Assembly (NCBI GenBank): GCA_958009085.1
Contig: OY253684.1
Coordinates: 744,001 to 808,000, forward strand
Origin: Protoeuglena noctilucae
Taxonomy: Eukaryota
Length of the DNA: 64,000 nucleotides
Reading direction: 5' to 3'
The notes under the pieces were generated by a model. The model saw only the letters and a program-made list of their open reading frames with translations. It was not told where the DNA came from and did not search any database. Within the stretch, counting starts at the first letter, position 1; each line of letters begins with the position of its first letter. Shown in pieces: positions 14,205 to 58,000 of the stretch. The translations under genes and the position numbers were made by a program.

Positions 14205-14404
14205 NNNNNNNNNNNNNNNNNNNNNNNNNNNNNNNNNNNNNNNNNNNNNNNNNNNNNNNNNNNNNNNNNNNNNNNNNNNNNNNNNNNNNNNNNNNNNNNN
14301 NNNNNNNNNNNNNNNNNNNNNNNNNNNNNNNNNNNNNNNNNNNNNNNNNNNNNNNNNNNNNNNNNNNNNNNNNNNNNNNNNNNNNNNNNNNNNNNNNNNN
14401 NNNN
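14205..14404. other. Assembly gap (200 N) at the centre of the inverted repeat
   Basis: Run of N. Confidence 1.
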
Positions 14405-15026
14405 GCACCTGGGTGACCGATGGTGACCGTTGGGTGGGTCATGGCCCTGTCCGCTTACAAATAGCGCCTCTTGAGCTTTATTTCTGCCTGCCGAACGCGG
14501 TGGCGGGGTCGCTGGGCGCCGGCGCCCGCCACCGCATGGGGCCCCCGAGATGCCCGCCGCCGCGCCGCACGCGCCTCCCAAGGCCCCGGATGCGCGCTTT
14601 TTTAACCTTTTCCTTTGCGTTGTGCCGGCCTTCTGGGCGATGTGCTCGCGGGCGGCGCGCGTAGACGGGGCCTGGGGTGGGGAGGCATCTCGGGCCCCCC
14701 GCGTCACCTTTGGCCGCCCTCTTGGAGCTTTTCCGCGCCGCAACACTTCCTGATGACGAGCTGTTGCTCGCGGACGGGGAAGCGCAGAGCCTTTTCGGTG
14801 CCCGGCCGGCCCCAGGACATGGCCAGCCGCCGCAGCTGGCCGGGCCTCCCGCCAGCTCGCGCCCGCTGGGGAGGGGAAGGCGGCTGTTTTCGGATGCGGT
14901 TGGTCGTTGTATTCGTTTGCCGCCTTGCTCAAGGTGCCTCTTTCTTCGCTGTCTTGTGTGACAACCCAACCACATGCACCCTCTGTGCTGCAGTGACACG
15001 CGTCGCGGCAGCTCTCGGCGGCCAAG

Positions 15027-34526: not shown

Positions 34527-37373
34527 TCACTGCCCGGCGTCTGCGTGGCCGTTGCCGTTCGCACCGGCCTCCTCCTCCGGCAGGGCCTTCTCCCTCTTGC
34601 TGAAGACGTAGACGACCTTCATGTTGTCCTGGTCGACCATGAACCCGTTGAAGGCCACGGCCCCCGCGAGGGTGTAGGCACCGAACTTGAAGAAGAGGAT
34701 CCAGTCGCCGATGTTCATCTCCGGGAGCATCATGCCCTCGACGACCTTGTCGGCGCCGTCGCACGTGGGCCCGTAGAGCGTGGACGGGTACGTCTTGCGC
34801 ACGCGCATCTCCTCGGCGTGGCGCATGATGCCGGTCGAGGGCGACACGATGATGTCGTTCACGGGGTCCTTGATGGCCCGCGGCTTGATCTCCATCTTGT
34901 CGTAGAGCTTGCAGTTCATCGAGCCGTAGATGCCGTCGCTGATCCAGTAGTCGATGGCCGTGGTGCCCTCGTTCGTGGTCTTGACACGCTTGCCAAACAC
35001 GTTCGTGACGATCGTGAAGGGCGCCTCCGCGAAGAAGCGGCCCGGCTCGGCGATGAACTTGACGCCCATCGAAGGCGGGAAGAACTCGTCCAGGGCCTCG
35101 CGGATCTCCGCCGCGAAGTCCATGTCGATCTCGCCGTCGTCCATGAAGCGCGCCTGGAAGCCGCCGCCGATGTCGATCTGCGGGCCGGACGAAACCAAAG
35201 TAAGCAAATGGTCACCAAACGAAGCGCACGCGGAGGGCGCAGCGCGCGCGGTGCGAGAGGGAGGCGCAGACAGCCCATGCAGTCGAAGTGCGCCCCTTGC
35301 AGGCGATGCGTTGGCTGCAGCTGCCCCCGCAGCTCACCAGCTTCATCTTGTGCCCAATCTCCGTGGCCATGTCGAAGGCGTCGCGGGCCGTGGAGATGGC
35401 GTTGCGGTAGGCGCCGTGGCCGGAGGACATGGACCCGACGTGGAAGGACACGCCCACGACCTGGAGGCCGAGGGTCTTGGCCGTCGTCAGGACCTGGTGC
35501 CACGTGTTGCGCTCGGCGCCGTACTTGGCCCCGAAGATCATCTTGGCATTCGGGTCGTCGGCGCGGATGCGCAGCACGAGCCGCGCGGACTTGTTGGCGT
35601 TGGCGATCTTCTGGACCTCGCCCACTGCGCGGGGACCGAAGCGGGGCGGCTGAGCCGAGGAACGAAGGCGGAAAATGCCTGGCCGGGGCCAGACCTGGCG
35701 ATGAAAGGCACGGCACGCATGGCGGCCCGCAGTGTCCCCCGCCCCACACAAAGCCACCGTCCCAGCGCCGCGTCGCAGAGCGCGCTCGCTTGCTCCCTGC
35801 GCCCCTCACCCGTGTCGAACGTGGTGAGGTTGGCGCCCAGCTGCGCGGCCTTGGTGATCTCGCGCGGCATCTTTTGCGGGTGGGCGAAGATGATGCGGTT
35901 GACGTCCGCGCCGACCGAGATGGCCAGCTCGATCTCGTGAGTGGTGGCGCAGTCGAACCCGGCGCCGAGCGCGCACAGGGTCTTGAGCAGGCCTTTGTCG
36001 GGCATGCACTTGACTGCGGGGGCAGCGTGGCGGCTCCGTCGCACGCACGCACACTGGCTGGGTGCTGCGTGTCCTCAGCACCCAGTCGGGCAGCGAACGC
36101 AGGACGAACGAGCAGGCGAGGATGCCAGCGATGCTGGACACTGCCCGGGCGGCTCGCCTGCGTAGAAGGGCCGCACGCGGGGCAGCGCGCGGCGCCAGGC
36201 GGAGTAGAGCCTCATGACCACGCCGAGGTCGCAGATGTAGAAGTTGAAATCGAGGACGTCCCGAGCGATCAAGTGAGCAGCGACCTCACTGATCGTGGAC
36301 TCTTCGCCCTGCTCGATCACTGCGGGCACGACGGGACAGAGAGCGGTCGGTCCTCCGACGAGCCCTGCAATGCTCGCGCGCCAGGCGGCGAGCAAAGCGA
36401 GAAGTGGGGCAATTGCACAAAGCCACGCGGGCTGCGGGCGGCGCACGAGGGCTTAGGAGAGGCGACGCTGCGCAGGTGCCTCACCGGTGGCATCAAGCCC
36501 ATTGCAAACCTCCACCATCTTCGCTTCAAGCTCTTCAGGGATAAACTCCATCTCGGTGACGAGCTCCCGGAGGTCCGCGGCCTCATCGACGCACTGCGGG
36601 GCATGGAAGGCATGGCAAGTGTCGCGCCCTGGATGCCCCGCGCCGCGGGAGTGCGGGGGTACGCCGGCGTTCGGCACGGTTGGAGAGCTGGGAGGATACG
36701 GAGATGTGGGCGCGTCGCTGAGATCGCGGGGAAGCGCGGCGCGCGGCGCGCGGGCGGCTGACGTGGCGCCGCCTCCGTGGGCGATCCACCCGCTCGCTGG
36801 CCTCTTACTGCCCTCCTCACGCGTGCCAGAGAACGGGTGCCCCACAAGAAGCGCACCTCCGGCGCCTCGGAGGCGAGGTCCTTGAACAAGTTCGGGACAT
36901 CTGCGGGCCTGATGATCTTGAGGGCCGGCTCCTCGACGGCTTCCACGTTCGACTCTTCCCTCTCCTGCAGGCCGGAGGAGTCGGAGTGTCGTCGTCGAGA
37001 GCGCGCGGGGCGGGAGAACGCCGCGGAGGCGCCCGACGGGGCGGGTCGCGGCAGGCAGGTAAACGCGCGTGGCGGGGGGTGCTTGACCGCCTCGCCGGCC
37101 GCACAGGGCCACGGCGGGCGCGCAGGGGACGTCCCTGGCCACAGCTGGGGAAAACACCTCGCGCAGGCGACCCGCGGGCACGCAGAAGGCGCCACCGCGG
37201 GGACCCCAGCCGTACTAAGGGCCCCCGGCAGTGCCCCGTGGGCGTGCGCCCGCGTCCTCGCCGCGCACCTCTTCCTTGACGACTACCGTGTAGCTCTCAA
37301 CGACGTCGTCATCCGGCTCGTACACCACCTCGACTTGAAGGGGCTGATTGGCGGGGGGTATGGCCACCTCCAT
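34527..37373 (-). CDS. ODC: Ornithine decarboxylase (group IV PLP enzyme) with acidic N-terminal extension
   Basis: PFYA|VKC (PLP lysine), GFDCAT, GVSFHVGS, IDIGGGF, IAEPGRF, DGIYGSMNCKLYD, GPTCDGAD, FGAYT. Confidence 0.93.
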
Positions 37374-37736
37374 CACGCTGTCGCTCACACACGGCGAGAC
37401 GAGCACGGCACTCGACAGGAGCGCTTAAACCACCCCGTAGCGGAGACGGGGGGCGCTCGACGACGCCGGAGCGCCGAGCGTACGCGGGACAGGCGGCCGA
37501 GGTCGAGCGAGACCGAGACAGCCAGGGTCGGACGTGCTCGCGAGATCCCGCATGTGGCGCGTGGGCGGGGAGGACGGCGCTTGGCCTCCGCGAGAGTCAG
37601 TCGTTGTTTCCGGCAGCAAGGGCCTATGCCGCGTGCGCCCTGGTGAAGATCGACGGCCCCCGGCGCTCAGCATTTGAATTCGGGCGATGCCGTCACGGCT
37701 GTGCGGTCGCAGGTGCCCTCGCGCTTCAAAGGCCGC

Positions 37737-38659
37737 CTAACTCCCAGCCCCATGTGCCCGCTCCGGTCCTGGCGAGGCTGGCCTCGCGCGCAGGAGTGCG
37801 GACACCGTCTCCGCGTCCGCGATCAAGCCGGCGACCAGAGACTCCCCCCGCGCGCCTCGGCGGGAGGATACGGCGGGCGCCCCGCAGCGGCAACCTTGCG
37901 GGCGTCCCGGGACATCGCCGGGGCCGTCCATCGCGTCCCCTGCGCCCCGAGAGCTCGAATCCGTAACCAAGGAACCAGCAGCGGCTAAAACGTCCGCCTG
38001 ATTCGTCCCGGTCAGGCGCAGGAGCACGTCCCCCAGGTCGCCTCCCTCAGCCACCGGCCCCGGCCCGTCCCCCGCGCGCAACCCCGCGAAAGCGCGATCC
38101 AGCTCGTCCTCTCCGCGAGCTTCCACAGGCCTCTGGGCGGAGATGAGCCGGCACGCGGCGGCGGCGCAGTCCCGGCAAGGTTGCGGGGGCAGAGCCGCCG
38201 GTGCAGGCCACCCGCCCAGCGCCCTGTCGCGCAGCGCGTCTGCCGTGGCGAGGGAGCCGCGCAAGAAGCCCCAGGCAGCGCCGAGATTGGCGCCCTCCCC
38301 GAACTGCGCGCAGAACGCGGGCACGTTGCTCTGGGCCGGGCCTCTCCGCCCGCCGCGGCGTGCTCGCACTGCCCCTTCCCCCTCACCCCGATGTTGAACC
38401 CCGTCTGGACCGTTTGCTGCATGCCTTGCTCGGATCCTTCCCTGCGAGCCGCGGTGCTCCGTCGTGGGGCCACCGCACGCAGACTATCAAGCATGGGCGA
38501 CGTTATAGAGCCATGGAAGCGCCGCCCTTACCTGATATGGACAGCTTGTGACTCGAACATCACATCTTCCACTCACCGGAAACCCTCCTGCCACAGCGAC
38601 ACCCCGGGGCCCTCCCTCACGTCCTCGTCGCCCCATACGTCCTCGTCCCCGCCTCTCAT
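37737..38659 (-). CDS. YAE1: Yae1-domain protein (three exons)
   Basis: Spliced product MRGGDEDVWGDEDV...LWQEGFR|EGSEQGMQQTVQTGFNIG|FGEGANLGAAWGFLRG matches the Gly-periodic Yae1_N motif; donors gtgagt and gtgagg, acceptors gcag. Confidence 0.8.
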
Positions 38660-38767
38660 CTCGCACGCAGTGCTCTGGAGGTTACGAACTGCGTGACAAT
38701 GCATGGGAAGCTGGCAAATCATCATCCCATCGGCCGGTTGGCCCCAAGCAAGCAACACTGGCGGTGA

Positions 38768-42540
<3,773 letters not shown>

Positions 42541-42543
<3 letters not shown>

Positions 42544-42589
42544 GCCCGCTGCGGTGTTTTGGCCAATGGCCACCCCTGCAGCGGGCTTG
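42541..42589 (+). promoter_or_regulatory. Strong stem-loop directly 3' of the Sec UGA (SRE-like)
   Basis: aagcccgctgc (42542-42552) pairs perfectly with gcagcgggctt (42578-42588); inner stem tggcc/ggcca. Confidence 0.6.
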
Positions 42590-42863
42590 GGAAAGGCGGC
42601 TGGCAAGAGCTTGCCACGCCTCCGCCTGCCTTCATTTTCAATTTTCTGCTGGTGAGCGCGATCGCGACAGGGGCTGAGTGGTAACGGGCCATTGCTCATT
42701 TGTTAGGGGGGCAATGCGCTGACTCATGCCGGGCGCCGTTTCATGCGCCCGCAGGAAACGTGGGCGGGAGACCCCGGGTCGACGACCCTCCGACGATGAG
42801 AATCTTGTTTTTGACACTTAGATTCTCAACGTCAAGGGAATCTTCGCCAGGGAACCTCCCTCG

Positions 42864-42907
42864 ATGATGGCGCTGCGGGAATCGCACCGCGGCCGCAGCG
42901 CCGGATG
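42864..42907 (+). promoter_or_regulatory. Eukaryotic SECIS element core (form 2) in the TrxR 3' UTR
   Basis: AUGA at 42864; 10-bp helix II GGCGCUGCGG/CCGCAGCGCC (42869-42878 with 42893-42902); unpaired AA at 42880-42881; apical mini-stem CGC-acc-GCG; GA at 42904-42905 completes the G.A/A.G quartet. Confidence 0.9.
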
Positions 42908-43384
42908 CCTCCGCCCACGTTGTCACCCAGCGCCTGCCATGTTTGGCGTAGATAGCAGATTGCTGTTAGATTGCAAGCGTCGCGGTTCTTTTGGTAGTGG
43001 TTTTGTTTCCGAGGAGCACCAGCGGAGCCCGATGGATGCGAGAGAGTTTGCAAGGGACATTGAGCGACTGCACCTGCACCCACCATTTGCATGGGGCGGG
43101 CATGCCCACACATCACAAACCGCCATTCTTCTCTAGCTTAGCGATGCATGGATTCGATTCAAGCACGCCCGTATCTCAGCCGCGCCCCATCCGATGCTCG
43201 CCATGGCTCCCTCGGCCCACACCTATGCGCGGCCGCAACGTCGCAAGGAGTCGACCTCAACACCGCAGCACCGTTACTCTCACTCCCCTCCACGCTGTCA
43301 CCCACTCACTGCCCATCACTGCCCCTCCCCATCGCTCACTCCCCCTCCCTCCCCACTCACTCCACCACCCCCTCCCATTCTCCC

Positions 43385-46300
43385 TCACTCCCCCCCCTCT
43401 TCCATCTCCGCGTCCTGGATGGCCAACTGCTCCAGCAACTCCTCCAGCGGCACCTCAGGCACCTCGTCGTCTGCAGATGTAAGCATACACGCATTCTGAC
43501 TTCATCGATGATAGTGATGCTGTAGCTGGTGAAAATCATAGCATGATGATCAAGCAGTTCCTACAAAAACACCCTCCCACACCTACCCTTGCCCCAACCA
43601 ACCACTACCACCATGCACCCCCACCCACGCATCCTCACTCCCCCCCCCTCACCGGACTCGCCCCCACCCGCCCCCGCCCCCTTTGCCGCCCCCGTCCCCC
43701 CCTCTGCATCCCGGTACAGGTTGACGTGTTTGCGCAGCTCTGGGTCCTCCTCCAGTTCCTCCAGGAAGCGCTCCCGGTCGCGCTCCCTCTGCTCCGCCAG
43801 CTCCTGCGGAAGGGTGGCGGTGTAGGGGGCGGTGGTATGGGTAGCAGGGAGGGTGGCAGTGGGGGAGGTGATATGGGTGGCAATGGGGGTGGTGAAATGA
43901 ATGGCAGTGAGGGTGGGAATGACGATAGCAGTGAGGTCATCAGCAAGGGTAGCAGCAACCACACCCTGCCCTTCTACCACCATCCCCTCTACCACCACCA
44001 CCACCACCCCCACCACTCCCTCTCACCTTGGCCTGCCTGGCAGACACCCCCTCCTCCCCCTCCTCCATCGCCAGCTGCCGCAGCTTCCACGCCCGCCGGT
44101 GCCCCGCCTCCCTCCTCTTCCTGCGCTTCTCCTGGTAACTCTTGCGCACCAGCACGATGTCCGGCAGGGACGTCCCCGCGTGTGCGTATTCCTCGAAATC
44201 GCCGTCGTTGACCATGTGGGCCAGGTCGTAACCCAGCACTGCGGGTGAATGAAGGGGGGGTTGAGGGTGCTTACTCTGTCATTCATTCACTCCCTCCCTC
44301 CCTCACTCACTCGCTCACTCACTCACTCACTCTCACTCATTTCCCTCCCATTCACTGCCTCTTTCACTCTCTAACTCACTCACACACCCCCTCCCCCACT
44401 CACCCGTGTCCCCCGCCTTCAGTATGTTGCCCAAGTGACTCCCGACTACATCCATATCACGTACAAACCCACTCACCCGTGTCCCCCGCCTTCAGTATGT
44501 TGCCCAAGTGACTCCTGACCACATCCATATCACGTACACACCCACTCACCCGTGTCCCCCGCCTTCAGTATGTTGCCCAAGTGACTCCTGACCACATACG
44601 TGTCGTTGTTCTGCCCCAAATCCGCCGCCCTCGCCACCTCCACATCCACCAGCTCATGCTTGCCCGCCCTCACCCCCGTCCCCTCCACATCCAAAACCAC
44701 GAACTCTGACAGCTGACGGGAGGTCATGAGGGGGCGGAAACCCCAACGCCTGTTAGGGTGGGGGCGAGGGTGGTGGTGAGTGGTGGCTGTTGAGGTAAGG
44801 GTTGTGAGGGGTGAGGGCAGCGGGATGGGTGCCGTGTTAACACAAAGCCAGTACTAACACATACGTGCTTTAACACATCAACATGCTCTGCGTGTCTCAG
44901 CCCTCACCAACACTGCTCTGCATCTCTCATCTCCCCTGCATATATCCCATCCCTCACCAGTACTGCTCCGCGTTGAGCTGCGTGGCCTGCAGCGTGGCGG
45001 GGCACAGCAGCGTCAGCACGTTCGTGACCCGCGTGCACAGCACGATCGGCCCCACGCCCCCCGACGCCTGGAAGAGCTTCCTGGGCAGGCAGATGAGGTC
45101 GTCCTTGCAGATGGGGACCATCTCCACGCTAAACGTGTACTGCGGGGGCGTTGGGGGATTGGGAAGAGTGAATAGGGATGTGATTATGATGACGTGTACC
45201 GTGCTTGTTGGAGCGTCATGGCAACAGGGATCCTGGTGGATGCATGGGCCGGGGGCGTGCAGTGCCATGGATGTCGTCATGCCACGCACTGCACTATTGC
45301 CACTGAAACTCGCATGCAATCGCATCCCCCATCCTCGCCTTGTAGTTGTGGGTGCTCTCGTGGATGTTGTGCGACATATATACAGCATCAGCATCAACAA
45401 CAGCAAATAACGATAGCACCCCCCATCCTCGCCTTGTAGTTGTAGGTGCTCTCGTGGATGTTGTGCGACACCAACTGCTTGTCGTGGCGGAAGCGCACGG
45501 GCACCACGTTCTGAAGGAAGTCGATGAGCTTGACGGCGTGGGAGCGATTGGAGAAGTAGAAATCCAAACCCTCGTGCTTGCTCTTGATGCTGCAGTGGTG
45601 GGGAGGGGGGTGTGGGATGCTATGTGATGTGGGTTGACATTCTGCCCTCTTGCTTGCTCTTGATGCTGCGGTGGTGGGGAGGGGGGTGTGGGACATAGGT
45701 CATGTGGGGTAGCATTCTGCCCTCGTGCTTGCTCTTGATTCTGCGGATTAACGCGGGAGTGGGGCGGAGTGCAATGTGAGACATGAGTGGGATGTAAGGT
45801 ATTCATCATCAGCGGTCCACGCCACACACGGCCCCATGCGTGTTTACCCACGCGACTCTCGTCACTACTGACTACTGATGAATGCTAACGATAACTAGTC
45901 ATCCATAGCCATTCTCGCCTGATGCAGTTCTCGTCTGCGTTGTGCTTGAGGATGAGCTGCTCCAGGTAGAAGAAGGTGCGCTTGTGCTCCACGTGCTGCC
46001 TGCGATGCGAGATGGGATGCGGGATACGGGTGAAGGCATGTATGGGGGATGTGGAGCAAGCGGGGCAGGCGTATTGATAAGCATGGCTGTCCCTCAGCTG
46101 CACAGACTACATGCCCATCATTGCCCCTCACCTCAGCTGCACTGACTGTTCCCTCGCTGTAATGTCCATAGTCACCCCTCAATCGCCCCTCACCTGAGCT
46201 GCACGGACGCCTTCCACGCCTCCCGGTTGGTGTTGGCGCGGTTGCAGTCCCCGCACATGTTGCTCTCGACCACGAACTCGGTCACGAACTGCTGCTGGAG

Positions 46301-47341
46301 GATCGCCCCGTTGAACACCTGCTGCTGCACTGTGCACTTGACCTTGATGCGGCGGCTGTGGGGCTGCGGGCGGACGGAGAGGCGAGGCGAAGTAAGTGAT
46401 GCTGTAACGAAGTCTACGGTCATTGTCTCACGTTACTTGTTCACCAGCACTCTTAGTCTATCGCCACTGTCACAGCGTCACCCCCTTTCATTTCAGCACT
46501 CTTATATCGCACTCCCACCCATCATCGCTCACCTCCGTCCACACGAACCCCGCGTCCGTCAGCTGCACGTTCTTCATCTTGGGCTTCAGCTTGCTCAGAC
46601 ACAGCTGCAGCAGCTCCTTGCTCTCCAACCCCGCCGTCACCTGCGTTGCCAAGGGGGGACGCGAGTCGGTGATCGCAAACTGTGGCAAGTGACTAGTGGG
46701 CGAGGGGCCATGCAGCAATGCCATCGGAACGGTGCAACTTGGACAGCGATTCCATCAGTAATGCGTGAATGCAGCCACAGTGTATCGGCAGAGGGCGCGT
46801 GCCTAACACGTGCACACGAGGGCCCTCACCCAGTGCTTGGGGGGCTGGAGGTAGCGCCCGCACTGCTGGCACCAGATGATGCTGGCGTTGCGCGGGATGC
46901 CGTCCGTGATGTCCACTTGAGAGCGGATGCAGTTGACGCACATGTTGGACGGGTTGGGCTGCATTGGCACGCCGCACAGGCAGCACAGGCTGCAGGAGGA
47001 AGGGAGCGCGTGGCTCGAGGGGAATCCGCGGCGTGGCCATCGGATGTGATGGCACATGCGATAATCTACGTCGCGGTGGCACGCGAGGCGCCCGGAAGAG
47101 CGCGGCGCGGCGCGGCGCGGGCGCAGAGGGCCGGCGCGTCTCAACCGCTCGAGAAGCCGACACGCGAGGGCGGCGGCAGGCGTCGCGCACGTGTCGATGA
47201 GTACATTGGACGCAAACGGCCACGAGGGTAGGCACCGCGGTCCTCGGCGCGCGGGGCCGCCACTCACACAGTGGCCATCGTCTGCTGCGGGACGAACGTC
47301 CCCGGCGCCGCGCCCGGGACGCCGTGAAAGGCGCCCTCCAT
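43385..47341 (-). CDS. NMD3: 60S ribosomal export adaptor NMD3, multi-exon
   Basis: FVPQQTMATV|LCCLCGVPMQPNPSNMCVNCIRSQVDIT, AGFVWTE|PHSRRIKVK, QHVEHKRTFFYLEQLILKH, YNYK|YTFSVEMVPICKDDL, FLEELEEDPELR, VPLEELLE. Confidence 0.95.
44395..44600. repeat. 73-bp tandem repeat (three copies) of an NMD3 exon end plus donor site
   Basis: cccactcacccgtgtcccccgccttcagtatgttgcccaagtgactc recurs near 44395, 44468 and 44541. Confidence 0.9.
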
Positions 47342-48229
47342 GACTGTATCCCCCTGCGCGTGTACTGGGGTGATAAACCCCCCTCCGCGGCCCCTGTGCG
47401 GCCCGGCGCTTTGCGTGCCGGCTCGCGAACCCTAACGGGCCTCTCGCGCGCCACGTCGATGAACCTGGGCCCCGTGCAAACGCCCGCCAGACCCTCGGAT
47501 GAATCCAGCGGCGGTGTTCTATGCTTTCGGTCGCAAAAGGACCGAGATAGTCTCAGGCGAGGAAGGTGTCGAAACTAAGAGGCGGGGACGAACGCCAAGT
47601 TCTACCGGGAGCCCAATCTTGCGAAGCGTTCGTGCCGGAAGCGCGGAGGACGCGCGCCAGGTGACCCAGGTTTAGTGCGTCAGAAACTTCTCGCTCTCCA
47701 CGGGCAGTTTTCGCGCTCGTGAAGTCGCGGCTAGGCGCATATGCGATGTCGCTTGCGTCAGAGCGCTCGTCTTTGGGCCCCAGCCCATCTTGTGCCTCCC
47801 AGCCCGGTGCGCCGTACCGGGGCGCGCGATTGACCTCCCAGGCGAGTTCCATGGCAGGTTTGAGTTTCTGAAAAACGTGAGGATCCTCGCCGATGGTCAG
47901 AACCCCCGGCGGAGGACGCTATGGGCGGGGGCGCAGCGCAAATAACAACGGGGTTTCCTTTGGCCTCTCCGAAGCGACCGCTCGTCTTCCTGGCCGTTCG
48001 CCATCCAGTATTGCATCTGAGTATGAAAGACTCCTTGTCGCGAAGGGCTGGGCCGACGCGGCTGCGCCATATCACACCAAAGGCCACCGCAGCGTCTCGC
48101 ATGCGCCGATTGATGCATAGTCTCCCGCCCCTCGTCCGCCACCGCAGGCAGACTCCCTGACTGAGGAGGCATTGCATCACTTAGCCCATTGGGGCCGGTC
48201 GAGCTCTCGAGGAGCGTGCACGATTCGCC

Positions 48230-51200
48230 ATGCCCACCCCCGGCTCGCCGAGGCCAGCCCTCGGGCCCCTTTCTCTCAACGCCGATGCCGACGCCGGGGC
48301 GCTGAGGTACATTTCGCTGCTATCCTGCTTCCGCCGCGAAACTCCGCTCACCCTCACTTCCAATCACGCGCTTGAACCAACCGCCCGCTGCGCCCCCGCA
48401 GCCCATCGCCCCGCAAGTCCCCGACGCGCCGCGCGGACGGCATCTTCGACCGCGTCGCGGAAGGCGGCGAGAACAGCCCGCACCTCCGCCTGGGCACCCC
48501 CGCGTCGCCCGCCCAGTCCGTGTCGCTGGCCCCACCTGATGTCGACTCGCCATCGCTCCTGCTCCAAGGCCCCTCAACCCGCAAGGACGCCCCCCCGACG
48601 CCGACGCTCTTCGGCCCCGCCTTCACCGCCCGCCGCGCCCCGCCCTGCCCCCCTTCCCGGAGCCCTGCCTTTGATGCGTCAGAGCGCGCGTTTCGGGCGG
48701 CCAAGGCAGCGGCAGAGGCGGCCCTGGAGCCCAGCAGCGGGTCATCGGCCCGCAGCCGCTCCTGGGGCCGCAGGGCCGCTTGGGACAACGACGGCGGGGC
48801 CTCTCCCTCCGGTGAGATGACCAGAGCACCATGCCTGTTGCTCACATCACCCCTTACTGCGGCACTGAGTCACCTATCCACGACCCCACCTGTGTGCCCC
48901 CCGCTGCACCCGGTACCACCCAACGCATCCTGTGCCCCTCTCTCCACCCCGCAGTTTCTTTTGGCAGCGTAGTGGCCCCTGCCCGAGGATCCCCCACCGC
49001 GCAAGAGACCGACACGGCCACCTCTGCCCCCTACGCCCAAGCCCAGGCCCAGGCATCCGCACCGACCCTGCGATTGTCGCCGCTGACCCTCGTCCGTTCC
49101 CTCCAACAGGCGTGCTCGCCGCGACCGGGCCTCGCCAAGTGAGCACTGCTGCTGCTGTGCAACTCGTATGCACCACAGAGCTCGTATGCAACACCACCCA
49201 GCCCCCTCGCCACTGCCTCGCCATTTCTGCGATTCCTCTGTGTGGCTCATACGGTCCCAGCAACCCTCAACCTCCCCCGCTTGGCCGCAGTGCCTCCACG
49301 GTTGCCCCCCCAATGGCGGCCCCCCCCGCCGGCCCTTACGACATCCACCAGGACGCCGCCACCCCTGGCCCCTCCCGCCTGGGGACCCAGCCGGCGTCCG
49401 TGTCGAGCCCCGCGAGCCCAGCGGTCGTCATCCCTGCCCTGAGGCGAGTGCACAGTGGTCGCACGGCCTCAACGTAAGCCCCTCCCTCCTCTGCGCAACA
49501 GCACATTCTGTACAATTGTCATAAACATATGTGCGCCATCCCTTCATAGCCTCGCTCTTCCCACCACTGTACCGTCCGCAGCCCCGCCCTGGCCCTCGTC
49601 ACCGCCGCCACCGGGCCCAGGCACGGCCCCCCCCGGACGCCCGCCTCCATCCAGCGCGGCAACAGCGGGGCCAGTCCCTTCGCGGAGCCCGCCATCCGCG
49701 TCAGGACGCCAGCCCAGGCGCGGCAGGTGAGGACTGGGAGGGATGGCGACTGTGACATGAGATGGGCTGAGATGGGCTGCTGTGGAATACACAAACACTG
49801 GGATTGATGTGTACGTGTGGATATGAGAGAACAATCAGCCAGAGAGCTGGCTGACTGCCCTGCCACGGGCCCATGACACGGCAAGTGGCAAGGAAGATAA
49901 GGGGCTTGCAACAAGACACCCCACCCGCCCCCTCCGCAGGCGAAGCTGCCACCCAACCTGGCCAACCTGGCCCCCGCCCTGCGCTTCCTGGCCCACTACG
50001 ACTCCCCGGGCGGCGCGCCGCGCCCCGCCCCCGGCGCCCCAGCGCACACCAACAGGCGGTCGTCACGCAAGGAGCGCCACGGCCGCACCCGGCACCGCAC
50101 CTCTGCTCAGAAAGCACCGACAACTGCAACGGAGACGCTGACTGACGACAACAAACAACCCAAGCGCAGCTCGCCCACTGGGGACCAGGCCAGGCACCCG
50201 GCCACCTCGCCGGTGGCCCCCACGCCCCCCGCGACGTTCGCTGCGGCGGCGGTGGCGGCGGTGCCAGAAGCACCTGCACCCCGGCGCTCGGTGTTCAAAG
50301 AACGATCTCCGACCGGATCCGCGGGGTCCCAGGGCACCAAGTCTCAGGACTCTGGGGCTGCGTGCGGTGATGCGGCACATGACACGGCCACGAGCACGCC
50401 CCGGGTGCACCCTACCCAGGGCTACGCCGGCCTGCTGGTGCGGGGAGAGGTCAGCCCCACGTCCGGGGCGGTGGGGCTTTCGTGGCCGCAGCTGGGTGCG
50501 GGGTGCGAGGAGGGGGGCTCGGGTGCAGGGACGCGGTCTTTGCTGTCTTCGGCATCGGCGGGCCGGTCGGATCGCACGGGCAGCGTCGCTGGCACTCCCA
50601 GGGTGAGGATGGAATGTGGCTGGGGAAGGGTGGGATGTGGGGAGAGGCAGCGGGAGTGACACTAACCAGGATAGTGGTACTGTCACCTCTGTTTCTCTGT
50701 ATTCGCAACCACATGCGTCATGGCCACCTCTCTCCCATTCACAGCTATGCTCAATTGCCTGCCCTCGCAGTTGGGCCCGGTCAATGTCGACATTGGCAGC
50801 GCGTCCCGGTTCGGGTGCGACAGCTCTTCGGACGCCGGGCCGGACGGGGAGCCCGACACTCTGCTCCACGATGCCGAGCCCCTGCGGTGCGTCCTGAGCT
50901 ACATCAATGTATCACATCGCGTGCCAAGTCACTGATAAGCAGACCATGCCACCCTCACGTCGCACGCTCGCTCCACGCTCTGCAGGCTGGGTCTGGAGGA
51001 CTTTGGCAGCAGCAGCCCCGCCACGCCTCGGGCTAAGGGTGGCGAGGGGCGTGAGGGTGCGCCCGCCCCGCCCCGCACCCCGGCTCTGGCGGTGCTGCGC
51101 GTGGAGGGAGGGCCCACGGTAAGATGCATGGGTTGACTGTTGTCATCGTGTTTTCAGAAACTGCGTTCAGTCCTTGCAACCCCATCAATCTAGCTGCTGC

Positions 51201-52852
51201 CAATTTGGCTGTGTACAGGAGATGCCCTTTCATCGGCGTCACATGCCCCTCAACCCCAACTGCCCCTGTCGTGCCCGCAGGCCGCGGCAGATGCGGACGC
51301 GGGGGCAGGCGGTGTGTTTGGCACAGCGGCGGCGATGGCACCCGCGTTCGGTCACGCCAGGGCTGCCCCCGCTGCTGCCGAGGGCTCAGCGCACACCCAG
51401 GGCGGCCAGGGCGACGCGGCTGAGGACGCCGCTGACGCTGACTCTGACGCCGACTCTGACGCGGGTTCTGACATCGTCACAGACGTCTCGTCTGTCGGCG
51501 ACAGCACCCCGGGCGACGATGTGGTCGACGATCTGACCCATGATCTGGGCGACGAGGCCCATACCCCCACGCAACGCCACGACCAGCCGGCCACCATCAC
51601 TGGCCCGGCCACAAGCGGTGGCCCCGGCTGTGCCTGGGCCCCGTCGCCCACCGCCGTCGTCACCACCATCAACCCCCTCTTCCGCCCCGACTCCCTCTCT
51701 GGGTCACCGTCCGACTCCGCCCAGCCGACATCGCCGTCCCTCACATGCACGGCCACGGGCCCTCACCACCGCCCCGCGTCGCCCAGCTCCCCTCTGCGCC
51801 CCGCCAGCCCCGGCGTTTCTGACGCTACCACAGACGCCCCCGCTGCCACCCTCACCTACCCCGCACCGGGCCTCGCGCCCCCGCGCTCCCCCGGCCCCTC
51901 CCTCGCGGCCTTCTCCGCCTCCAAAGCCACCCGCGTGCCCAGCGCCGCTCCCGCGCCGCACCCGCGGCTGGCCAGGGAGGCGATGGAATGCGAGGCGGCA
52001 GCGGAGGCGGCGTTCGGGGCTGGGGCGGTGCGCGACGGTGGCTCTGTGGTGGCCCTGTCGCCCGTACGCGCACCCCGGGGGTTGCTACTGCCCGGCGAGG
52101 ACGGTGCCGATGCAGCGGGCGTCGATGGCAACGGTGCCGACGTGACATGCGTCGATGCTACGTGTGCCGAAGTCACAGACGGGTCTCCAGTGCAATGCCC
52201 GCCGCCAGCGCGCACCCCTCGCCGCGCGCCACGCAGCGACGTGGTGTCTCCCGTGCGCCGCACGGCGAGGCGCACCCCCTCGCGTCCGACGGTGGGCGAC
52301 GCTCACGAGGCCCTGCAGGGTTGCGGGTACGCATACCTGCCCAACCGGGCGCTGTTTGGCACCGAAGAGGGTGCAGAGGGGCGCATGGAGGACCTGGCTA
52401 AGGACCAGGAGGGGCCTGGGATGGCAGAGGGCGTGACGGTGGATGCGGCGGGCGCCGACGGCGGTGGTGCGGACGCCGAGGCTGTGCCCGCGGCTCACGA
52501 GGAGGGTGCCGCGGGGAGCAAGCAGTCCCAGCGCAAGCGGTCGCAGCGCTCGCGGCGGCAGCGGCGGGCCAAGGGAGGCACGGAGGCCCAGGGTGGTGCG
52601 GCATGCACAGCTGAGGGGGGCAATGAGGGTGGCGCTGCGGAGGGAGTGGAATCGCCAATGGTGGCTGGGCCGGGGAGCGGCGCGGGGGCGGTGGACGCGG
52701 GGAGCAGTCCGAGCCCGGACCAGCTGGTGGTGGGGAAGAAGGCAAAGCGTGGCGGGGAGGGCAGCGACAAGGCGGGTGCGGGCGGGGAGGGGCGCGGGGC
52801 TGTGAGGAGGTCGCAGCGGCTGCGGGAGAAGGCCCAGCGGGACGGGCAGTGA
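48230..52852 (+). CDS. Low-complexity Pro/Ser/Ala-rich multi-exon protein of unknown function
   Basis: Long terminal open frame (about 51281-52852) ending AVRRSQRLREK; upstream open segments are flanked by GT/AG sites. No domain recognised. Confidence 0.5.
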
Positions 52853-53301
52853 GGTGGATGGGGCTTTTATTGGGGAAGAGAAAGAGGGGTGGTGAGATGG
52901 AGATGGGTGGAGGAGAGTGCGCGATAGGACATGGCATGGGGAGGTGGAGGGTTGTGGCTTGTGCCCTTTTCATTGGTAATCGCTTAGCAGACCTCGCTTG
53001 GGGCTCGTGGGGCCCGCTCCTGGACGCGCTAGGGTGGCATCAAGCACATAGCGCGGCGTAACAAGCGGGCTCTCAGTTCTTTCCAAACGATGTGAACCGT
53101 GTCGATATTTCAAACTCTGCCTCGCTGCTTCTGACTGGTACCAACATGTGCCAAGTGCCTGTTTGCATGTGATACACGGTCAGATTCGGATGTCGATGCC
53201 CGGTGCCTCCGTACGCATTACAAGAGGTAGAACCACCAGTCATAAATTGCAACCAGACTAACAAGGACCAAAACCCATCGATCCTGGGATCTCTGCCTGC
53301 G

Positions 53302-54863
53302 TCATCCGGGTATCCACAGGTCCATGTCTGCCACGGGCGTGTTGATGATGTGCGCGTCAATGTCCTCAAATGGGACGAAGCAGAACGCTGAGGTCTTCTG
53401 CAGGGATGACGGGCATGGGGTGAGGGTGAGGGTGAGGGTGAGGGGGAGGGGGAGGGGGAGGGTGGAGGGGAGCGTTGCGAATATGAGAGAGGAAACAAGG
53501 TCGCCTAACCAACCAGCATGTCATCCCTCACCCGCTATGCAAAGGTTGACATGCAGTCACAGTCACACTCACTCAGCCACCCCTCACCTGCGCCACCGGC
53601 TCCCCGCTCGCCCCCCCCTCCCCGTCCGGGTCCAACGACAGCGTGTCGGCCATCTCCGTCCCCGTGGCCGTCCTCTTGTCAAACGTCACAATCGACTCCA
53701 TGTCCAGGCGATTCATGGCGCCGGGGCACGTCGATCGCAGGCGAAGGGACCACCGCACCTCTGTGGTTGGTTGGGTCAATCACGACATCGCAATCAGCGG
53801 GGGTGGTATCAGCCACCTCATAACGTCGGGGCCAGTTGATACAACAGCGAATGGGCCCTGCTCGCCTGTCTCTGAGCACCCGTAATCGAGCTTGACGGCC
53901 ACGCGACCCCCCGACATGCGCCACTGCCCGCAGACCACCTCCCCGTGTGCGGCACTCGCCCCGTCGGCCTTCCGCAGCGTCCGCCAGATGCGGTCGGGCG
54001 CGGATGCGGTCGTCTGCGCGAAGAGGAACGATAACCGTGCTTTCCGCACGCTCAGAGCCAAGCGCATCGCGCCGCAGGTCCTCAATTCGCGGCCAAGTAG
54101 CAGTCATTACTTGCTCTCACCCGGGTGAGGCACGAGCCGTCCGGGTAGAAGCGCACGACTCGGAAGTAGCACGCGAGAACGACCTCCCGCCCGCCGCGGT
54201 GGTTGATGACGCCGGGGCGCAGGTAGTGGTTGCGAGAGACGTAGAGACCCTCGTAGCGAAGACGCAGACGCTCCAGGAACATCAAACGCCTGCGAGCGCG
54301 TCGCGAAATGAAGCTCATGCAATGAACCTTTATTGCGAACGAGAACAGCGCGGGAGTCGCGTCGCGCGCGTCACCAGTTGCCCCGGTACTGGCCCAGGAT
54401 CTTCAGCGTGGTCGACATGGGTTCGCGGCTTGCCCAAGTCTCCAGGCATTGGCTGCGCCACACGTCCGGCGACTTGCTCAGCTCGCGCAGGTGCTTGCAC
54501 GTGCACGCGGCCCGTGCCACGGCGTGCGCGGGGAGCTGCGGCCGAGGTTCGTCGGGTGTGCGCGGCGGTCGCGCGTTGTTTTAGTCACGCCGCCACGCGG
54601 CAAGCAGCGACATGAGCGTTTACAGCCACTCGCCCGGCTGAGGACGAGCCGGATGATCTCATTCGGCAGCGCGAGCAGCGCGCAGTCCGCGTTCACGTCC
54701 TCGCCCTCCTCCTGCGACCCTGGGCGCCGCAACCGGACGCCCAACAACGCATACCATGGCCTGCGAAACGGCGAACGCGTCCCGGCGTCCGGAGCGCCGC
54801 TGAGAGTGGCGAGCGAAAGTGCAGCGCAGCGGAGCACGGCCTCACCTCCACGACGGCAGCCAT
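53302..54863 (-). CDS. F-box protein, FBXO9 / plant FBP7-like
   Basis: F-box LLALPNEIIRLVL; MFLERLRLRYEGLYVSRNHYLRPG...CYFRVVRFYPDG; LRLRSTCPGAMNRLDM; C-terminus FCFVPFEDIDAHIINTPVADMDLWIPG-TGA. Confidence 0.85.
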
Positions 54864-55067
54864 AGCTCCGTCGTCGTCGCGCCCGACGATTGCATTCGTC
54901 TCCGAAACCGACGGCGAGTCTCGCGAAGGCGCGGCAGAGCTCGCGAGGACTAGAAGAGCGCTTTAAGCGTGGCTTGCGGTGCCGCTGGCGGTGTCGGGCC
55001 CTGTCCGCTTCAACCCTTGAGACTCTATGCTTTAAGGATTAATCCATGAGCTTTGCTTATATTTCGC

Positions 55068-58000
55068 CTACGCGTGCTCTTGGATGTCGGCCAGACACGT
55101 GCGCAGCGCGGTGTTGTACGTGTGCGTGCTATGGTCGTGCATCATCGATGGCGCAATCAAGACGCCGTCCGCGCAGAGCTCCGCGGCGTCGGCCCACACC
55201 GCCTGGAAGCTCGCGCGGGCCTGCAGGGGGAGGGGATATCAATTATTTGTAGCTTCCCATACCATGCCATGCCCCATATAGCCAGACGATACCTCACAAC
55301 ACATTACACGCTTCCCTCACCCAGTCTCGCCTCGCCGCCCGCACCGCCGCCGCCCGCCACTGCCGCGCACTCCGCACCACCAAATCCGCTGCGCCCGGCG
55401 CCACGCCACCGCAGCCCGGCCCAGTCCCAGGCACACCCTCGCCACCACCGTTGACCCCACCCCTGCCACCACCATCATCCCCACCCTCTCCACCACCCCT
55501 CCCCCCACCCTCTCCACCACCATTGCCCGCACCCTCGCCACCACCACTGCCCGTACCCTCTCCACCACCATTCCTCCCCGAAGACTTCCCTGCATGGTTA
55601 TTCACAAACTGTCCCACATCTCCCCCCACATGCCCCGCATCCAAGCCCCCTTTCACAGCCCCGCTCTCTTGCCCCGCAACCCCAGCCGGCACATCCCGTG
55701 CCCCACCCACGCCTACCCCACCCTTGTCCCCCACACCACCCTCAGCTGACCCATCTCGCCCCTCCTCTCCCCTCTCTTCATCCCCACCACCCCCACCCCC
55801 ACCCCCACCCCTCCGTCGTTTGCCCGACAGAGCGGGCAGCGTGATGTTCCACTGCACCTTGCTCAGCCACTGCCGCATCGACTGGGCAGCGCGGGTGGGC
55901 CCCGATGCTTGCTTGGGGCACTTGACGGGGCGTACGAGGATGACTTTGCCGGGTATGTGCATCTCTGGGACGTGGATGCGCTCTGCGCGGGAGCGGAAGC
56001 GGTCCAAGAAAGCACGGGCCTCCTGGGTAGGGGGGGGGGGGGGGGGGGTGAAGGGTGGTGGTGGTGGCGGTGGTGGGTGAGGGGTGGGTGAAGGGTGGTG
56101 TTGAGGAGGGGTGGTGGTGGTGGGTACCATCATTTTAATCATAACCCCTATTCATCTCTCTCCCCCCCACACACCTGCGGCACTTCCTCCATCGGCATGG
56201 GCATGAAAGCACCATTCACTCTACTCATATCAACAAATTCCCATCTATCTGTCACCTCTGGTACTTCCTCCATGGGCATGAACGCCCTCTCCGGGTCGAG
56301 CAGGTATCCCCGCATGTAAGCCAGAAAAACGCCGGTCTTGCCCAGCCTCGACCTCGCCAGCAGCTCCACCATCCGCGACTGCATCTGTTCCAGTGACCAC
56401 AGCGACATGCGGGGAACGAGGTCCTTGCCCACCACGACTGTGGTGACGAATAACGACCATGACGCGGCAGTGGCGGGGTCGGCTGTGCCACCAGGAGGGG
56501 CCACCGCCCAGCACCGCAGGGATGGGTAGCGCGGGCGCAGGGCGGCGGCGAGGAGCGCTGCGACGGCGCCGCCCAGGGAGTGGCCCGTGAGCACCAGCCG
56601 CCAGCCGTGGGACTCTGACACGCCCCTCTGGCGCAGCCATCGCGTGACGGGGCAGGTGCACTGGCCGCTCAGGACGCGCCTGGGGGGGTGGGGGGTTGAG
56701 TGTAAGGGTGAGGGGTGGTAGTGGTTGACGGGGGGCGTTGATGGGGTGATGGCTGGCAGAGAGTGACTGAGGTGGGTGGCGAGGGATGAAGGGTATCCTA
56801 GTCTCACCTGTCTATCCCCATCACTCGCCTCAGCATGATCTCTTTATCCATCACTTTCGCACCTGAGTATCCCCTTCTCATCGATGTCCCTCAGCGTCGC
56901 CACGGCACTGAGCACGAATCCCCCGTGGGCCAACCGATCCCAACCCGAGCCATCCCTGGAATGGAGAACAGACGGCAATGATAATGAGTATTATTACAAT
57001 GATAACTATCATGATCCATTATCGAGATAGTTATAGTAATAAATGGATAGTGCACCTCCCCCCACTCTCATCAGCACAGCACACAGCACACCCCCCCCCC
57101 TACACCCCCACTCACCCCCCTCTCCTCCTCTCCCCCACTTTTGTCAGCGAGCACAGCCGAATGCGCGGCGGCTCAGGCGACCCCTGCGGCTGCCCCGCAT
57201 CCGCCGCCTCCGCCCTCCGCCAACTGACCTCCGCAAACGCCTCCAAATCCGACATGGGGGCCACGTCGCCAAACACGTCTGGTTTGATGAGAAGGGGGGG
57301 GAGTAGAATGTTGGGGAAACTCTATTTGAGGTGATAAGTGGCTGGTTATTATCTGATACTAGTTATTATCTGATACTTATAGAAAGCACTGTTTACATTG
57401 TCACCACCTGCATATGACCAGGGCAGCAAAGCACCATTACTCTGCTACTGTTAACACCAACTCTCTCGGCCATGCAATGACCATATCCCCACCTCACCTG
57501 TGACGATGTCCTCGACCGATGCTGTGCCCCGCAGCGCCAGCACCACCGCCTTGTGGCCCGGGCTCAGAGCGATGATGTAGGGGAGCTTGGACTGTGTGGA
57601 CGGTAAGAGAGGAAATTGGCGGTCATGTGTGGATGTAGGGGAGCCTTGCATAGTAACATGGTTACTGTTGTCCACCAGGTGCGAGTGTACACGTCAGCAG
57701 CACTACCAGGCAAAGACGCATGCATCTCTACATCTCATATTCACTTCAAGTAGCTTACCAGAAACGAATCCTCGAAACTCGCATAGACGAGGTCGTCGAA
57801 TCCGATCTTCGCCTTCATAGCCACCGCCTCCACGTCCGCACGGCGGAGACGCGTGAAGCGCCGGCGGGAATCGAAGCCGGGACCCCAGTCCAATTCCGAA
57901 ACGCCCTCCTCTGCGGTTATGATGATGGAGTATCGATGCTAGTTACTCTCCCCCAACCCCTCACCTGTCCAACGCCCTCATCAACACCCCCGTCACTTCC

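Follow-up and report, generated by a model that had tools for sequence, protein, structure and literature searches.

Duplicated splice junctions within the introns of NMD3 and a convergent reductase-like gene in a marine protist

In a 64-kb window, the whole stretch of DNA analysed and the source of all counts given here, we found nine splice junctions that have been copied one or more times into the intron they border. All nine are in two neighbouring, convergent genes. When a 26-nt query stood for each junction and the threshold was set at 18 or more matching positions within the cognate intron, copies were returned for 9 of the 44 junctions in three genes. Of 924 non-cognate control comparisons, 3 reached that score, and the highest had 19 matches. 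By gene, a copy was found for 5 of 20 junctions in NMD3, 4 of 14 in the reductase-like gene and 0 of 10 in an F-box gene. We consider it likely that the copies arose by local duplication, which is tolerated across exon-intron borders, with the authentic site kept in use and the copies decaying independently. A sequence-only reading of the window had presented such duplication as undescribed at this density. The density is indeed new here, as are the acceptor-side cases, the GC donors and the host, but the same phenomenon at single junctions is known from human genes.

The NMD3 gene has an intact spliced reading frame, and its product, counted from the first in-frame ATG, is 526 aa. Pfam matches, each contained within a single exon, were to PF04981 (51.6 and 52.4 bits), PF21193 (65.8 bits) and PF21192 (71.4 bits), and the N-terminal, SH3 and OB-fold profiles (Pfam NMD3, NMD_SH3 and NMD3_OB) all score above their curated cut-offs, which places the protein in the NMD3 family. 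The host is a GC-rich marine protist, with introns that are short enough for recognition as units. For a PHO4-type transporter ORF, the named relatives that ranked first were Bryopsis (47%) and Pylaiella (50%), and the top match outside named organisms was at 96%; no named genome matched closely, and an affiliation with Emiliania is not supported. Pelagophytes, with fewer than one intron per gene (bioRxiv 10.1101/2024.10.30.620910), are a poor fit to the 10 introns of NMD3. Introns of NMD3 are designated N and those of the reductase-like gene T; arrays a, b, c and d are those of N7, N5, N4 and N3, respectively, and a fifth is that of N6. The features of the NMD3 gene are as follows.

43385..47341, minus strand: coding region of NMD3 (60S export adaptor), 11 exons and 10 introns of 169-329 nt
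46085..46212, minus strand: N3 donor (array d), exon-3 end plus GTGAGGGG, three copies; query match 21/26, RNA joint
45569..45768, minus strand: N4 acceptor (array c), three ~76-nt units; repeat comparison, RNA joint
45319..45470, minus strand: N5 donor (array b), 45413-45470 copied at 45319-45376, 94 nt downstream; 95% identity
44870..44971, minus strand: N6 donor (fifth array), exon-6 end plus donor; query match 19/26, identity, RNA joint
44395..44613, minus strand: N7 donor (array a), three 73-nt units; repeat comparison, RNA joint, depth in DNA run X4
43851..43936, minus strand: 24-nt repeat internal to NMD3 intron 8, ~3.5 units, away from exon sequence

Splicing of NMD3 was assessed using contigs assembled from three metatranscriptome runs, and such assembly drops rare isoforms. 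Joints were found for 8 of the 10 introns, while the introns at 43804-44026 and 43471-43652 come from the model only. Seven of the listed joints are present in all three runs, and the joint of the intron at 44750-44957 is present in one of the three. The joints define exactly the authentic introns 44239-44549, 44750-44957, 45140-45432, 45590-45918 and 46000-46193. All of the listed joints are at authentic exon-proximal sites, including two GC donors, and use of a copied site was not seen among them, though rare isoforms may be missing from the contigs. As the authentic site is still used, the mRNA is unchanged, and the earlier view of recurrent local direct duplications that carry a splice site yet leave the message intact is borne out.

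The four duplicated NMD3 junctions that the sequence-only reading had reported are all present, on the minus strand, at or a few bases from where it had placed them. In array a, the unit consists of approximately 46 nt of the end of exon 7, the donor GTGAGTGGG and approximately 27 nt of intron, and every unit bears ...AGDT(G)/GTGAGTGGG, where the slash marks the exon-intron border. Whole-unit identities are 96% and 81%, and across a 57-nt core the exon copy is 100% identical to its neighbour and 96% identical to the third copy. The authentic donor lies after base 44550, and the RNA joint between 44238 and 44550 was found in three of three runs. The duplicate in array b includes the end of exon 5 and the GC donor AAG/GCGAGG, which the junction query matched at 25 of 26 positions. 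A 36-nt microsatellite-like spacer separates the two copies, and the RNA joint between 45139 and 45433, with ends CT..GC, is present in three of three runs. The unit of array c, which is on the acceptor side, is made up of a pyrimidine tract, CAG and the first 21 nt of exon 5. Relative to the authentic unit, identity is 96% for the copy at 45645-45693 and 69% for that at 45720-45768, and the AG is kept in both of these upstream copies. The authentic acceptor, before base 45589, is the one found in the RNA joint between 45589 and 45919 (GC donor) in all three runs.

In array d, the segment at 46186-46212 has a copy 62 nt downstream, at 46124-46150, in which the donor is intact (GAG/GTGAGGGG), and a farther copy, another 39 nt on at 46085-46111, in which the GT has been lost. 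The core of this array, 46193-46209, recurs at 46131-46147 (94% identity) and 46092-46108, and the joint of the intron 46000-46193 was found in three of three RNA runs. Beyond the four junctions reported earlier, we found a fifth at the exon-6 donor, where 44945-44971 has a copy with an intact donor 50 nt downstream, at 44895-44921 (81% identity), and an additional decayed copy is present at 44870-44896 (the identities reported for the array are 81% and 82%). If used, all seven of the intact NMD3 copy sites would yield a premature stop within 0-40 codons, and the added lengths (50, 62, 73, 76, 94, 146 and 151 nt) include no multiple of three. Given these stops, and with no use of a copied site seen, the supply of alternative splice sites that the sequence-only reading had proposed is only a possibility.

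The neighbouring gene encodes a thioredoxin-reductase-like protein, and pieces of its open reading frame match Pfam Pyr_redox_2 and Pyr_redox_dim. Its introns, T5 and T6 included, were modelled on reading frame and splice consensus, and the listed RNA joints all lie outside this gene. The spliced model is an intact open reading frame that ends ...Gly-Cys-TGA-Gly-TAA. When positions 42400-43400, downstream of this TGA-containing gene, were searched for a SECIS element, no Rfam match was returned with E up to 1. The features of the gene are as follows.

39047..42543, plus strand: thioredoxin-reductase-like gene (selenocysteine-type), 8 exons and 7 introns, convergent with NMD3
39972..40115, plus strand: T2 acceptor plus ~34 nt of exon-3 start, authentic at 40072-40115, copy 100 nt upstream; query match 22/26
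40352..40486, plus strand: T3 acceptor, three 47-nt units of CACCTCGCAG plus ATGGTTC of exon 4; query match 18/26
41175..41293, plus strand: T5 donor, three copies of exon-5 end ...GAGTATGACGAG/GTGAG, every donor intact; query match 24/26
41691..41893, plus strand: T6 donor, four copies of exon-6 end ...ATCACGGACTTGAG/GTGAGGGGGCAGT; query match 23/26
42290..42412, plus strand: 74-nt repeat in the last intron, counted as internal

The middle copy of T3 lacks the AG and the last copy of T6 lacks the GT. Units of the 74-nt repeat in the last intron end with the acceptor-like TGCATGCAC, and this repeat may be a decayed acceptor copy. Comparison of the units revealed that the copies diverge from the exon copy in a star-like manner. 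At T6, the copies are 80-83% identical to the exon copy and 68-79% identical to one another, and at T3 the corresponding values are 90-91% and 76%. Across the arrays, it is the more distal, older copies that are without GT or AG.

Together, the copies account for 978 of the 2554 nt (38%) in the nine affected introns, and for 24-52% of each, in keeping with the earlier suggestion that introns grow by this route. With the copies removed, the affected introns average 170 nt, which is below the mean of 218 nt for those introns of these two genes that are unaffected, and the copies therefore explain all of the extra length of the affected introns. This is a measured instance of intron growth through local duplication.

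In the explanation that we favour, two adjacent, convergent genes that are rich in introns would repeatedly undergo direct local duplications of 35-100 nt, both within their introns and close to them, with slippage or unequal exchange as the most likely source. A duplication that is wholly exonic would usually be purged by selection, and one that is wholly intronic would be harmless. A duplication that spans the border would also be tolerated, as the spliceosome would stay with the site beside the real exon, namely the donor farthest upstream or the acceptor farthest downstream, and the extra copy would become part of the intron. The copies would then decay separately while selection on the protein fixes the exon copy, and the outcome would be longer introns and silent decoy splice sites. 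The mutational mechanism, the neutrality of the copies and the dispensability of a junction-specific process are what we infer from these patterns. Border-spanning duplications should, if anything, be slightly harmful, and this is a point against the explanation, given the nominal excess of arrays at junctions described below.

We see next to no chance that the repeats were created in the assembly of a contig derived from a metagenome, even though the window is probably from a metagenome sample and contains an N gap with a flanking mirror-image duplication. DNA run X4 is from organism A but from a different sample and study to the window's likely source. Its contigs, which span 37001-44272 and 44568-53407, match the window without a single differing letter, and in this comparison with one other run X4 is identical to the window across arrays b, c and d and all of the reductase-gene arrays. 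For the 73-nt array, a 57-nt unit contig in X4 has a depth of 368.9, compared with 136-140 in the flanks, or approximately 2.7-fold, which fits the 2.6-fold depth for 31-mers that three copies of the unit predict by hand calculation. In addition, 61-98% of the words sampled from the stretch were found in three other organism-A runs and in three further metagenome runs, the likely source not counted. As an independent DNA run reproduces the repeats, we conclude that they are real and not the artefacts that the sequence-only reading had allowed for. It is also very improbable that the affected introns were born when exon sequence was duplicated in tandem (the Rogers model) and that the copies are remnants of that event. 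By eye, two introns begin in the manner of the exon that follows them: in NMD3 intron 1, GTGAGGGCC resembles GTGACGGCG, and in reductase-like intron 3, ATG/GTGCGC resembles ATGGTTCGG. However, the 5' and 3' junctions of one intron are no more alike than junctions taken from different introns (16 cognate against 240 non-cognate pairs, Mann-Whitney p=0.30), and just one of the 16 cognate pairs (F4) has a local alignment score above the 95th percentile. Intron birth is disfavoured because the by-eye similarities failed this cognate test. The copies are beside one junction rather than at both ends of the intron, and the position of N3 (after residue 145.7 of a partial protein) coincides with an alignment break in a distant, intron-rich NMD3 relative, L013, which suggests that N3 is an old intron. 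The other intron positions in L013 differ, in a comparison made with distant relatives only. Tandem duplication of whole exons was rejected, as the exon part of a copy is only 7-50 nt long and is accompanied by a single splice site, and the intact NMD3 sites lead to stops in seven of seven cases. It is improbable, though less so than intron birth, that the copies are functional, either as decoys or enhancers that aid the authentic site, weak GC donors included, or as switches that tune expression by sending transcripts into nonsense-mediated decay. The GT, GC or AG is intact in seven NMD3 copies and in most of the reductase-like copies, and the premature stop that follows each intact NMD3 site is what regulation by unproductive splicing needs. 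In human F7, according to PMC1557585, repeated pseudo-sites work when they are unmasked. Against a function, no listed joint in the RNA contigs uses a copied site, the copies have diverged independently and lost GT or AG with age, as neutral sequence would, and no theme is common to the affected genes or junction types. Moreover, 0 arrays were found in the NMD3 gene of L013 with the identical detector. A metagenome scan returned at least 18 loci, all of them distant NMD3 relatives, with no more than 56% identity on exon 7 among the matches listed.

The placement of the arrays bears on whether mutation tied to splice junctions or to transcription, for example where G-rich intron starts provoke breaks or stall forks, or where R-loops form between genes that converge, makes border duplications preferentially, which we regard as unlikely. 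Under a uniform placement model, 5.73 of 13 arrays were expected to lie across a junction and 9 were observed (P=0.046), and for arrays with units of at least 35 nt the count was 9 of 11 (P=0.026). The excess over random intronic positions, on which the sequence-only reading had staked its proposal, is thus present but marginal, and it is inflated because the exon copy is kept constant by selection and decays more slowly. A junction-linked process would also suit the strong clustering of arrays in two convergent genes, the latest events in arrays a (100%) and c (96%), which again involved the authentic junction copy, and the coding-strand G-quadruplex-type motifs at 41154-41173 and 44387-44414, which adjoin two arrays. 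However, only two of the nine arrays adjoin such a motif, and the G-quadruplex association was dropped for this reason. Donor and acceptor sides have both been hit, with six donor arrays (N3, N5, N6, N7, T5 and T6) and three acceptor arrays (N4, T2 and T3; p=0.51), and the F-box gene has no copies though its donors are similar. Repeats away from junctions are also present in the region. NMD3 has the 24-nt array in intron 8 and a 27-28-nt array in its 3' UTR, and the reductase-like gene has a 44-nt pair in intron 2 and the 74-nt array in its last intron. Among inverted local copies, four weak pairs were found in 39000-47600 and none is at a junction; only direct repeats touch junctions. Since the placement excess is marginal and the copies diverge separately from a constrained exon copy, junction targeting is unneeded, and local duplication tolerated across borders is the reading that we prefer.

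The repeats are concentrated: the window has 23 repeat clusters, and 11 of them fall within 39.9-46.2 kb. Junction copies are present at 9 of the 34 junctions in the two genes and at 1 of 36 elsewhere in the 64-kb window (Fisher p=0.006). The 36 junctions are made up of 10 that are RNA-verified and 26 that are roughly predicted, and the sole match among them is in a TPR coding repeat. This hot region runs counter to a uniform genome-wide process, which predicts none. We are doubtful, somewhat less so than about a junction-linked origin of these arrays, that border duplication is an ongoing genome-wide mode, possibly linked to junctions or transcription, that serves as a main route of intron lengthening and continually seeds decoy donors and acceptors. 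If it were, copies would make up approximately a quarter of intron sequence in the genes concerned, and hundreds of natural replicates of splice-site choice would be available.

Minisatellites that straddle an exon-intron border have been described in human genes, including the 37-bp VNTR in F7 intron 7, IFI6 (6-16) intron 2, CBS intron 13, LMNB2 and PDGF (Borensztajn et al. 2006, PMC1557585). The F7 type is like the donor arrays reported here in that the unit is an exon end plus donor and identical or near-identical pseudo-donors trail the authentic one. The first unit spans the border at our six donor junctions, and the three acceptor junctions are mirror cases. As in F7, LMNB2 and PDGF, the most upstream donor alone is seen in the mRNA, in our case in NMD3 contigs for N3, N5 and N7 (three of three RNA runs) and N6 (one of three), with rare isoforms possible. 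The known minisatellites have 5-25 homogeneous units, whereas here there are 2-4 decaying copies. Further differences from the F7 type are that one gene has five affected junctions and the adjacent gene four, that three of the arrays sit at acceptors, that GC takes the place of GT in one copied donor and that the host is a marine protist.

Intron gain via tandem duplication of an exon segment bearing AGGT (Rogers 1989; Hellsten et al. 2011; Gao and Lynch 2009; reviewed in PMC3443670) also involves a short intragenic duplication of which the extra copy is spliced away and coding is kept. In that model, an exonic duplication gives rise to a new intron with copied ends, but here one junction of an existing intron is spanned and the intron is lengthened. 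Introner elements, introns generated by transposons in algae and other protists (Gozashti et al. 2022, PMC9860276), likewise place repeated sequence inside introns, as here in a marine alga-like genome. However, introners are dispersed near-identical introns, and the copies here are local only. When 15 introns were used to query the 64-kb window with BLAST, matches were to their own locus or to low-complexity sequence only, and introners were rejected. In full-text literature searches we found no description of dense junction-spanning duplications for an alga or on a genome-wide scale, though the supplements of Gao and Lynch 2009 may hold comparable cases.

Border minisatellites such as that of F7 intron 7 are natural experiments on the choice among identical donors, and one 8-kb stretch here provides nine cases of varied ages, on donor and acceptor sides and with one GC donor. 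If genome-wide, the process would be relevant to differences between lineages in intron length and in cryptic-site load. The copies are also a hazard for annotation, as gene finders may settle on a donor or acceptor copy that is not the right one, and assemblies of short reads are interrupted where the arrays are youngest.

Copies of exon ends and their splice sites lie within the adjoining introns of two convergent genes, NMD3 and a reductase-like gene. The single exons of the minus-strand gene match the Pfam NMD3, NMD3 SH3 and NMD3 OB-fold profiles in a window of approximately 65% G+C. The NMD3 model, built on reading frames and splice consensus with one upstream intron added from RNA, occupies 43385-47341 (minus strand) and has 11 exons separated by 10 introns (169-329 nt), and its 526-residue ORF is intact. 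Contigs assembled from three metatranscriptome runs, placed on 37001-57000, agree to the base with eight of the 10 introns; the two 3'-most introns are modelled and absent among the RNA joints listed.

NMD3 introns with RNA joints from metatranscriptome contigs
44239-44549, minus strand
44750-44957, minus strand
45140-45432, minus strand
45590-45918, minus strand
46000-46193, minus strand
46364-46532, minus strand
46641-46829, minus strand
46990-47267, minus strand

All four NMD3 junctions that the sequence-only reading had described as duplicated into the adjoining intron were found in the sequence, here arrays (a) to (d), and a fifth that it lacked was identified at the exon-6 donor.

Junction copies in NMD3
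44395-44613, minus strand: array (a), exon-7 donor, three 73-nt units
45319-45376, minus strand: array (b), copy of 45413-45470, exon-5 end and GC donor, 95% identity
45569-45768, minus strand: array (c), exon-5 acceptor, three units of about 76 nt
44945-44971, minus strand: fifth junction, exon-6 end and donor, copied 50 nt downstream (81%)

The unit of array (a) combines the donor GTGAGTGGG with about 46 nt from the end of exon 7 and about 27 nt of intron; over a 57-nt core the exon copy matches its neighbour exactly, and the third copy has 2/57 differences. The copy in array (b) includes 41 nt of the exon-5 end and lies 94 nt downstream of the original, while every unit of array (c) has a pyrimidine tract, CAG and 21 nt of the exon-5 start. 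Array (d) has copies of the exon-3 end plus GTGAGGGG at 62 and 101 nt downstream, the farther of which has lost its GT. An additional decayed copy lies beyond the 81% copy at the exon-6 donor. Other repeats in the gene include, in intron 7, a (GTGA)n/(GAGT)n microsatellite (about 32 units; 44279-44403, minus strand), which forms a run of donor-like GTGAGT motifs, and, in the presumed 3' UTR directly past the stop codon, 2.6 units of a 27-28-nt repeat with about 80% matches (43323-43409, minus strand).

By Pfam, the reductase-like gene (39047-42543, plus strand) encodes a thioredoxin-reductase-type pyridine-nucleotide disulphide oxidoreductase. Its model has eight exons with modelled introns and an intact ORF ending Gly-Cys-TGA-Gly-stop, and junction copies are present at four of its 14 junctions.

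Junction copies in the reductase-like gene
39972-40115, plus strand: acceptor and exon start, copied 100 nt upstream
40352-40486, plus strand: acceptor array, three 47-nt units
41175-41293, plus strand: donor array, three units
41691-41893, plus strand: donor array, four units

A 74-nt repeat in its last intron may be a decayed acceptor copy. Elsewhere, two arrays with a donor-like site, both in frame, may be further junction copies or coding repeats. At 20037-20163 (minus strand) a 45-nt unit present 2.6 times at 100% identity contains CCAG/GTGACT, in frame in a minus-strand ORF for which no Pfam match was found; the array is a very recent duplication across a donor, or else a coding repeat. 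At 56165-56290 (minus strand), a class-3 lipase gene has two in-frame occurrences, 81 nt apart, of FMPMEEVP(E/Q) with a GT donor-like site after it.

Chance matching was assessed with 26-nt queries (18 exon and 8 intron bases) at the 44 junctions of 22 introns: 10 in NMD3, seven modelled in the reductase-like gene and five, RNA-verified, in an F-box gene (53.1-54.7 kb). At 9/44 junctions the query matched its own intron at 18-26 of 26 positions in the best ungapped comparison, whereas the same queries reached at least 18 in only 3/924 comparisons with other introns (maximum 19). The X4 DNA contigs, from a labelled cultured organism whose sample and study are independent of the window's probable source metagenome, have no differing letters across 37001-44272 and 44568-53407. 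Array (a), the youngest, interrupts the 31-mer assembly of X4; its 57-nt unit contig has a depth of 368.9 versus 136-140 alongside; a hand calculation for three copies gives an expected ratio of 2.6-fold. The repeats thus do not result from misassembly.

With copy identities between 100% and about 70%, the events are of different ages and local duplication is a recurrent process, as had been proposed. Copies farther from the exon show more divergence, and many no longer have their GT or AG. In the reductase-like gene's older arrays, each copy resembles the exon copy more than it does its sisters: identities are 90-91% versus 76% in the intron 3 array and 80-83% versus 68-79% in the intron 6 array. 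On these comparisons, such star-like divergence agrees with the prediction of neutral, independent decay away from an exon copy frozen by selection, and speaks against the copies being homogenised or conserved. Copies make up 24-52% of each affected intron (978/2554 nt in total) and 23% of the two genes' total intron DNA; the suggested intron growth by this route is thus directly visible. The mean length of affected introns is 170 nt with copies removed, compared with 218 nt for unaffected introns of both genes and 117 nt for F-box introns.

Every NMD3 RNA joint listed uses the authentic, exon-adjoining site, although assembled contigs may miss rare use of others. Where donors are repeated (introns 3, 5, 6 and 7) the authentic site is the most upstream copy, and where acceptors are repeated (intron 4) it is the most downstream. 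Use of any of the seven intact copied NMD3 sites was computed to add 50-151 nt and to run into a stop within 0-40 codons. No alternative protein can be encoded by the copies, and transcripts from any copied-site use would be decay-prone.

One detector, applied to the 22 introns, found 13 arrays, nine spanning a junction and four internal. When a unit of the observed length was placed uniformly on the intron at its pre-duplication length plus borders, with spanning defined as at least 6 nt of exon, 5.73/13 spanning arrays were expected (P=0.046); among units of at least 35 nt, 9/11 span a junction (P=0.026). Donor and acceptor sides are represented 6:3 (p=0.51). As intron cores are 93-226 nt and units 35-100 nt, about half of tolerated duplications must span a junction, and junction arrays stay recognisable longer because one copy does not decay. 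The proposal that duplications are commoner at junctions than at random positions is thus not cleanly refuted, but the nominal excess is one that we regard as unproven, and it does not require a junction-directed mechanism. Affected junctions are concentrated in the two genes (9/34) versus 1/36 elsewhere in the window (Fisher p=0.006), where the comparison set was 10 RNA-verified F-box junctions (0/10) and 26 at 13 roughly predicted introns (1/26, the lone match sitting in a TPR coding repeat). Across the window, a relaxed scan found 23 local-repeat clusters versus 1-5 in ten block shuffles, with 11/23 within 39.9-46.2 kb. This regional concentration is unexplained by the simple placement model.

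Intron birth by tandem duplication would leave an intron's own ends alike, but the scores of 16 cognate pairs did not exceed those of 240 non-cognate pairs (p=0.30). Dispersed copies, expected of transposon-like introners, were not found within the window; snap-back or templated repair also predicts inverted copies, which were absent from the junctions. G-quadruplex motifs adjoin 2/9 arrays. In a distant, intron-rich NMD3 relative from another eukaryote (52% G+C), the same detector found no array in the gene. One alignment break there falls at the NMD3 intron-3 position, so at least this intron is probably old.

The mechanism first suggested, in which local duplicates straddling a splice site survive because the extra copy is spliced out, was essentially right, and the junction copies belong to a known kind. 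One report (PMC1557585) describes human genes in which the first minisatellite unit spans the border (F7 intron 7, IFI6, CBS, LMNB2 and PDGF); there, the first donor alone is used in F7, LMNB2 and PDGF, as in the NMD3 joints listed here, and the choice is put down to 5'-to-3' oriented scanning. Intron gain by tandem genomic duplication is treated as an accepted route in section 8 and Table 1 of PMC3443670, but that model, as set out there, has exonic duplications creating introns, unlike the junction copies here. No account of such density, of natural arrays on the acceptor side or of the pattern in algae turned up in our literature search. What stands out is the density (nine junctions in about 8 kb), the acceptor-side and GC-donor cases, and the clear measured contribution of copies to intron length.

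GC donors occur in 5/22 introns and 4/13 RNA joints listed, including NMD3 introns 4 and 5 (plus-strand ends CT..GC), and all have the form G/GCGAG (45432, 45918, 53865, 54633 and 42172). Such frequent GC-AG introns have parallels in figures of 56-64% for Emiliania (PMC4028052) and 14-17% for pelagophytes (bioRxiv 10.1101/2024.10.30.620910).

Several further features were observed. The reductase-like gene ends TGC TGA GGA TAA (42532-42543, plus strand), a putative Gly-Cys-Sec-Gly terminus of the kind characteristic of large selenoprotein thioredoxin reductases; no Rfam match to a SECIS element was found in 42400-43400 at E up to 1. X4 includes long joints from 50265 to 56030 and from 52806 to 56055, with several loose ends by a poly-G run at about 56030; these joints are probably repeat-induced, their supporting sides being only 20-22 nt, and a structural variant is possible. 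Within 11055-17402, ORFs of equal length are mirrored around a 200-N gap (14205-14404).

Mirrored ORFs
11055-11588, 11592-12224 and 12570-13460, minus strand: left of the gap
16869-17402, 16233-16865 and 14997-15887, plus strand: right of the gap

The mirrored layout reflects a genuine inverted duplication or else an artefact of scaffolding. On each side the two larger ORFs, four of the six in all, match the PHO4 phosphate-transporter profile.
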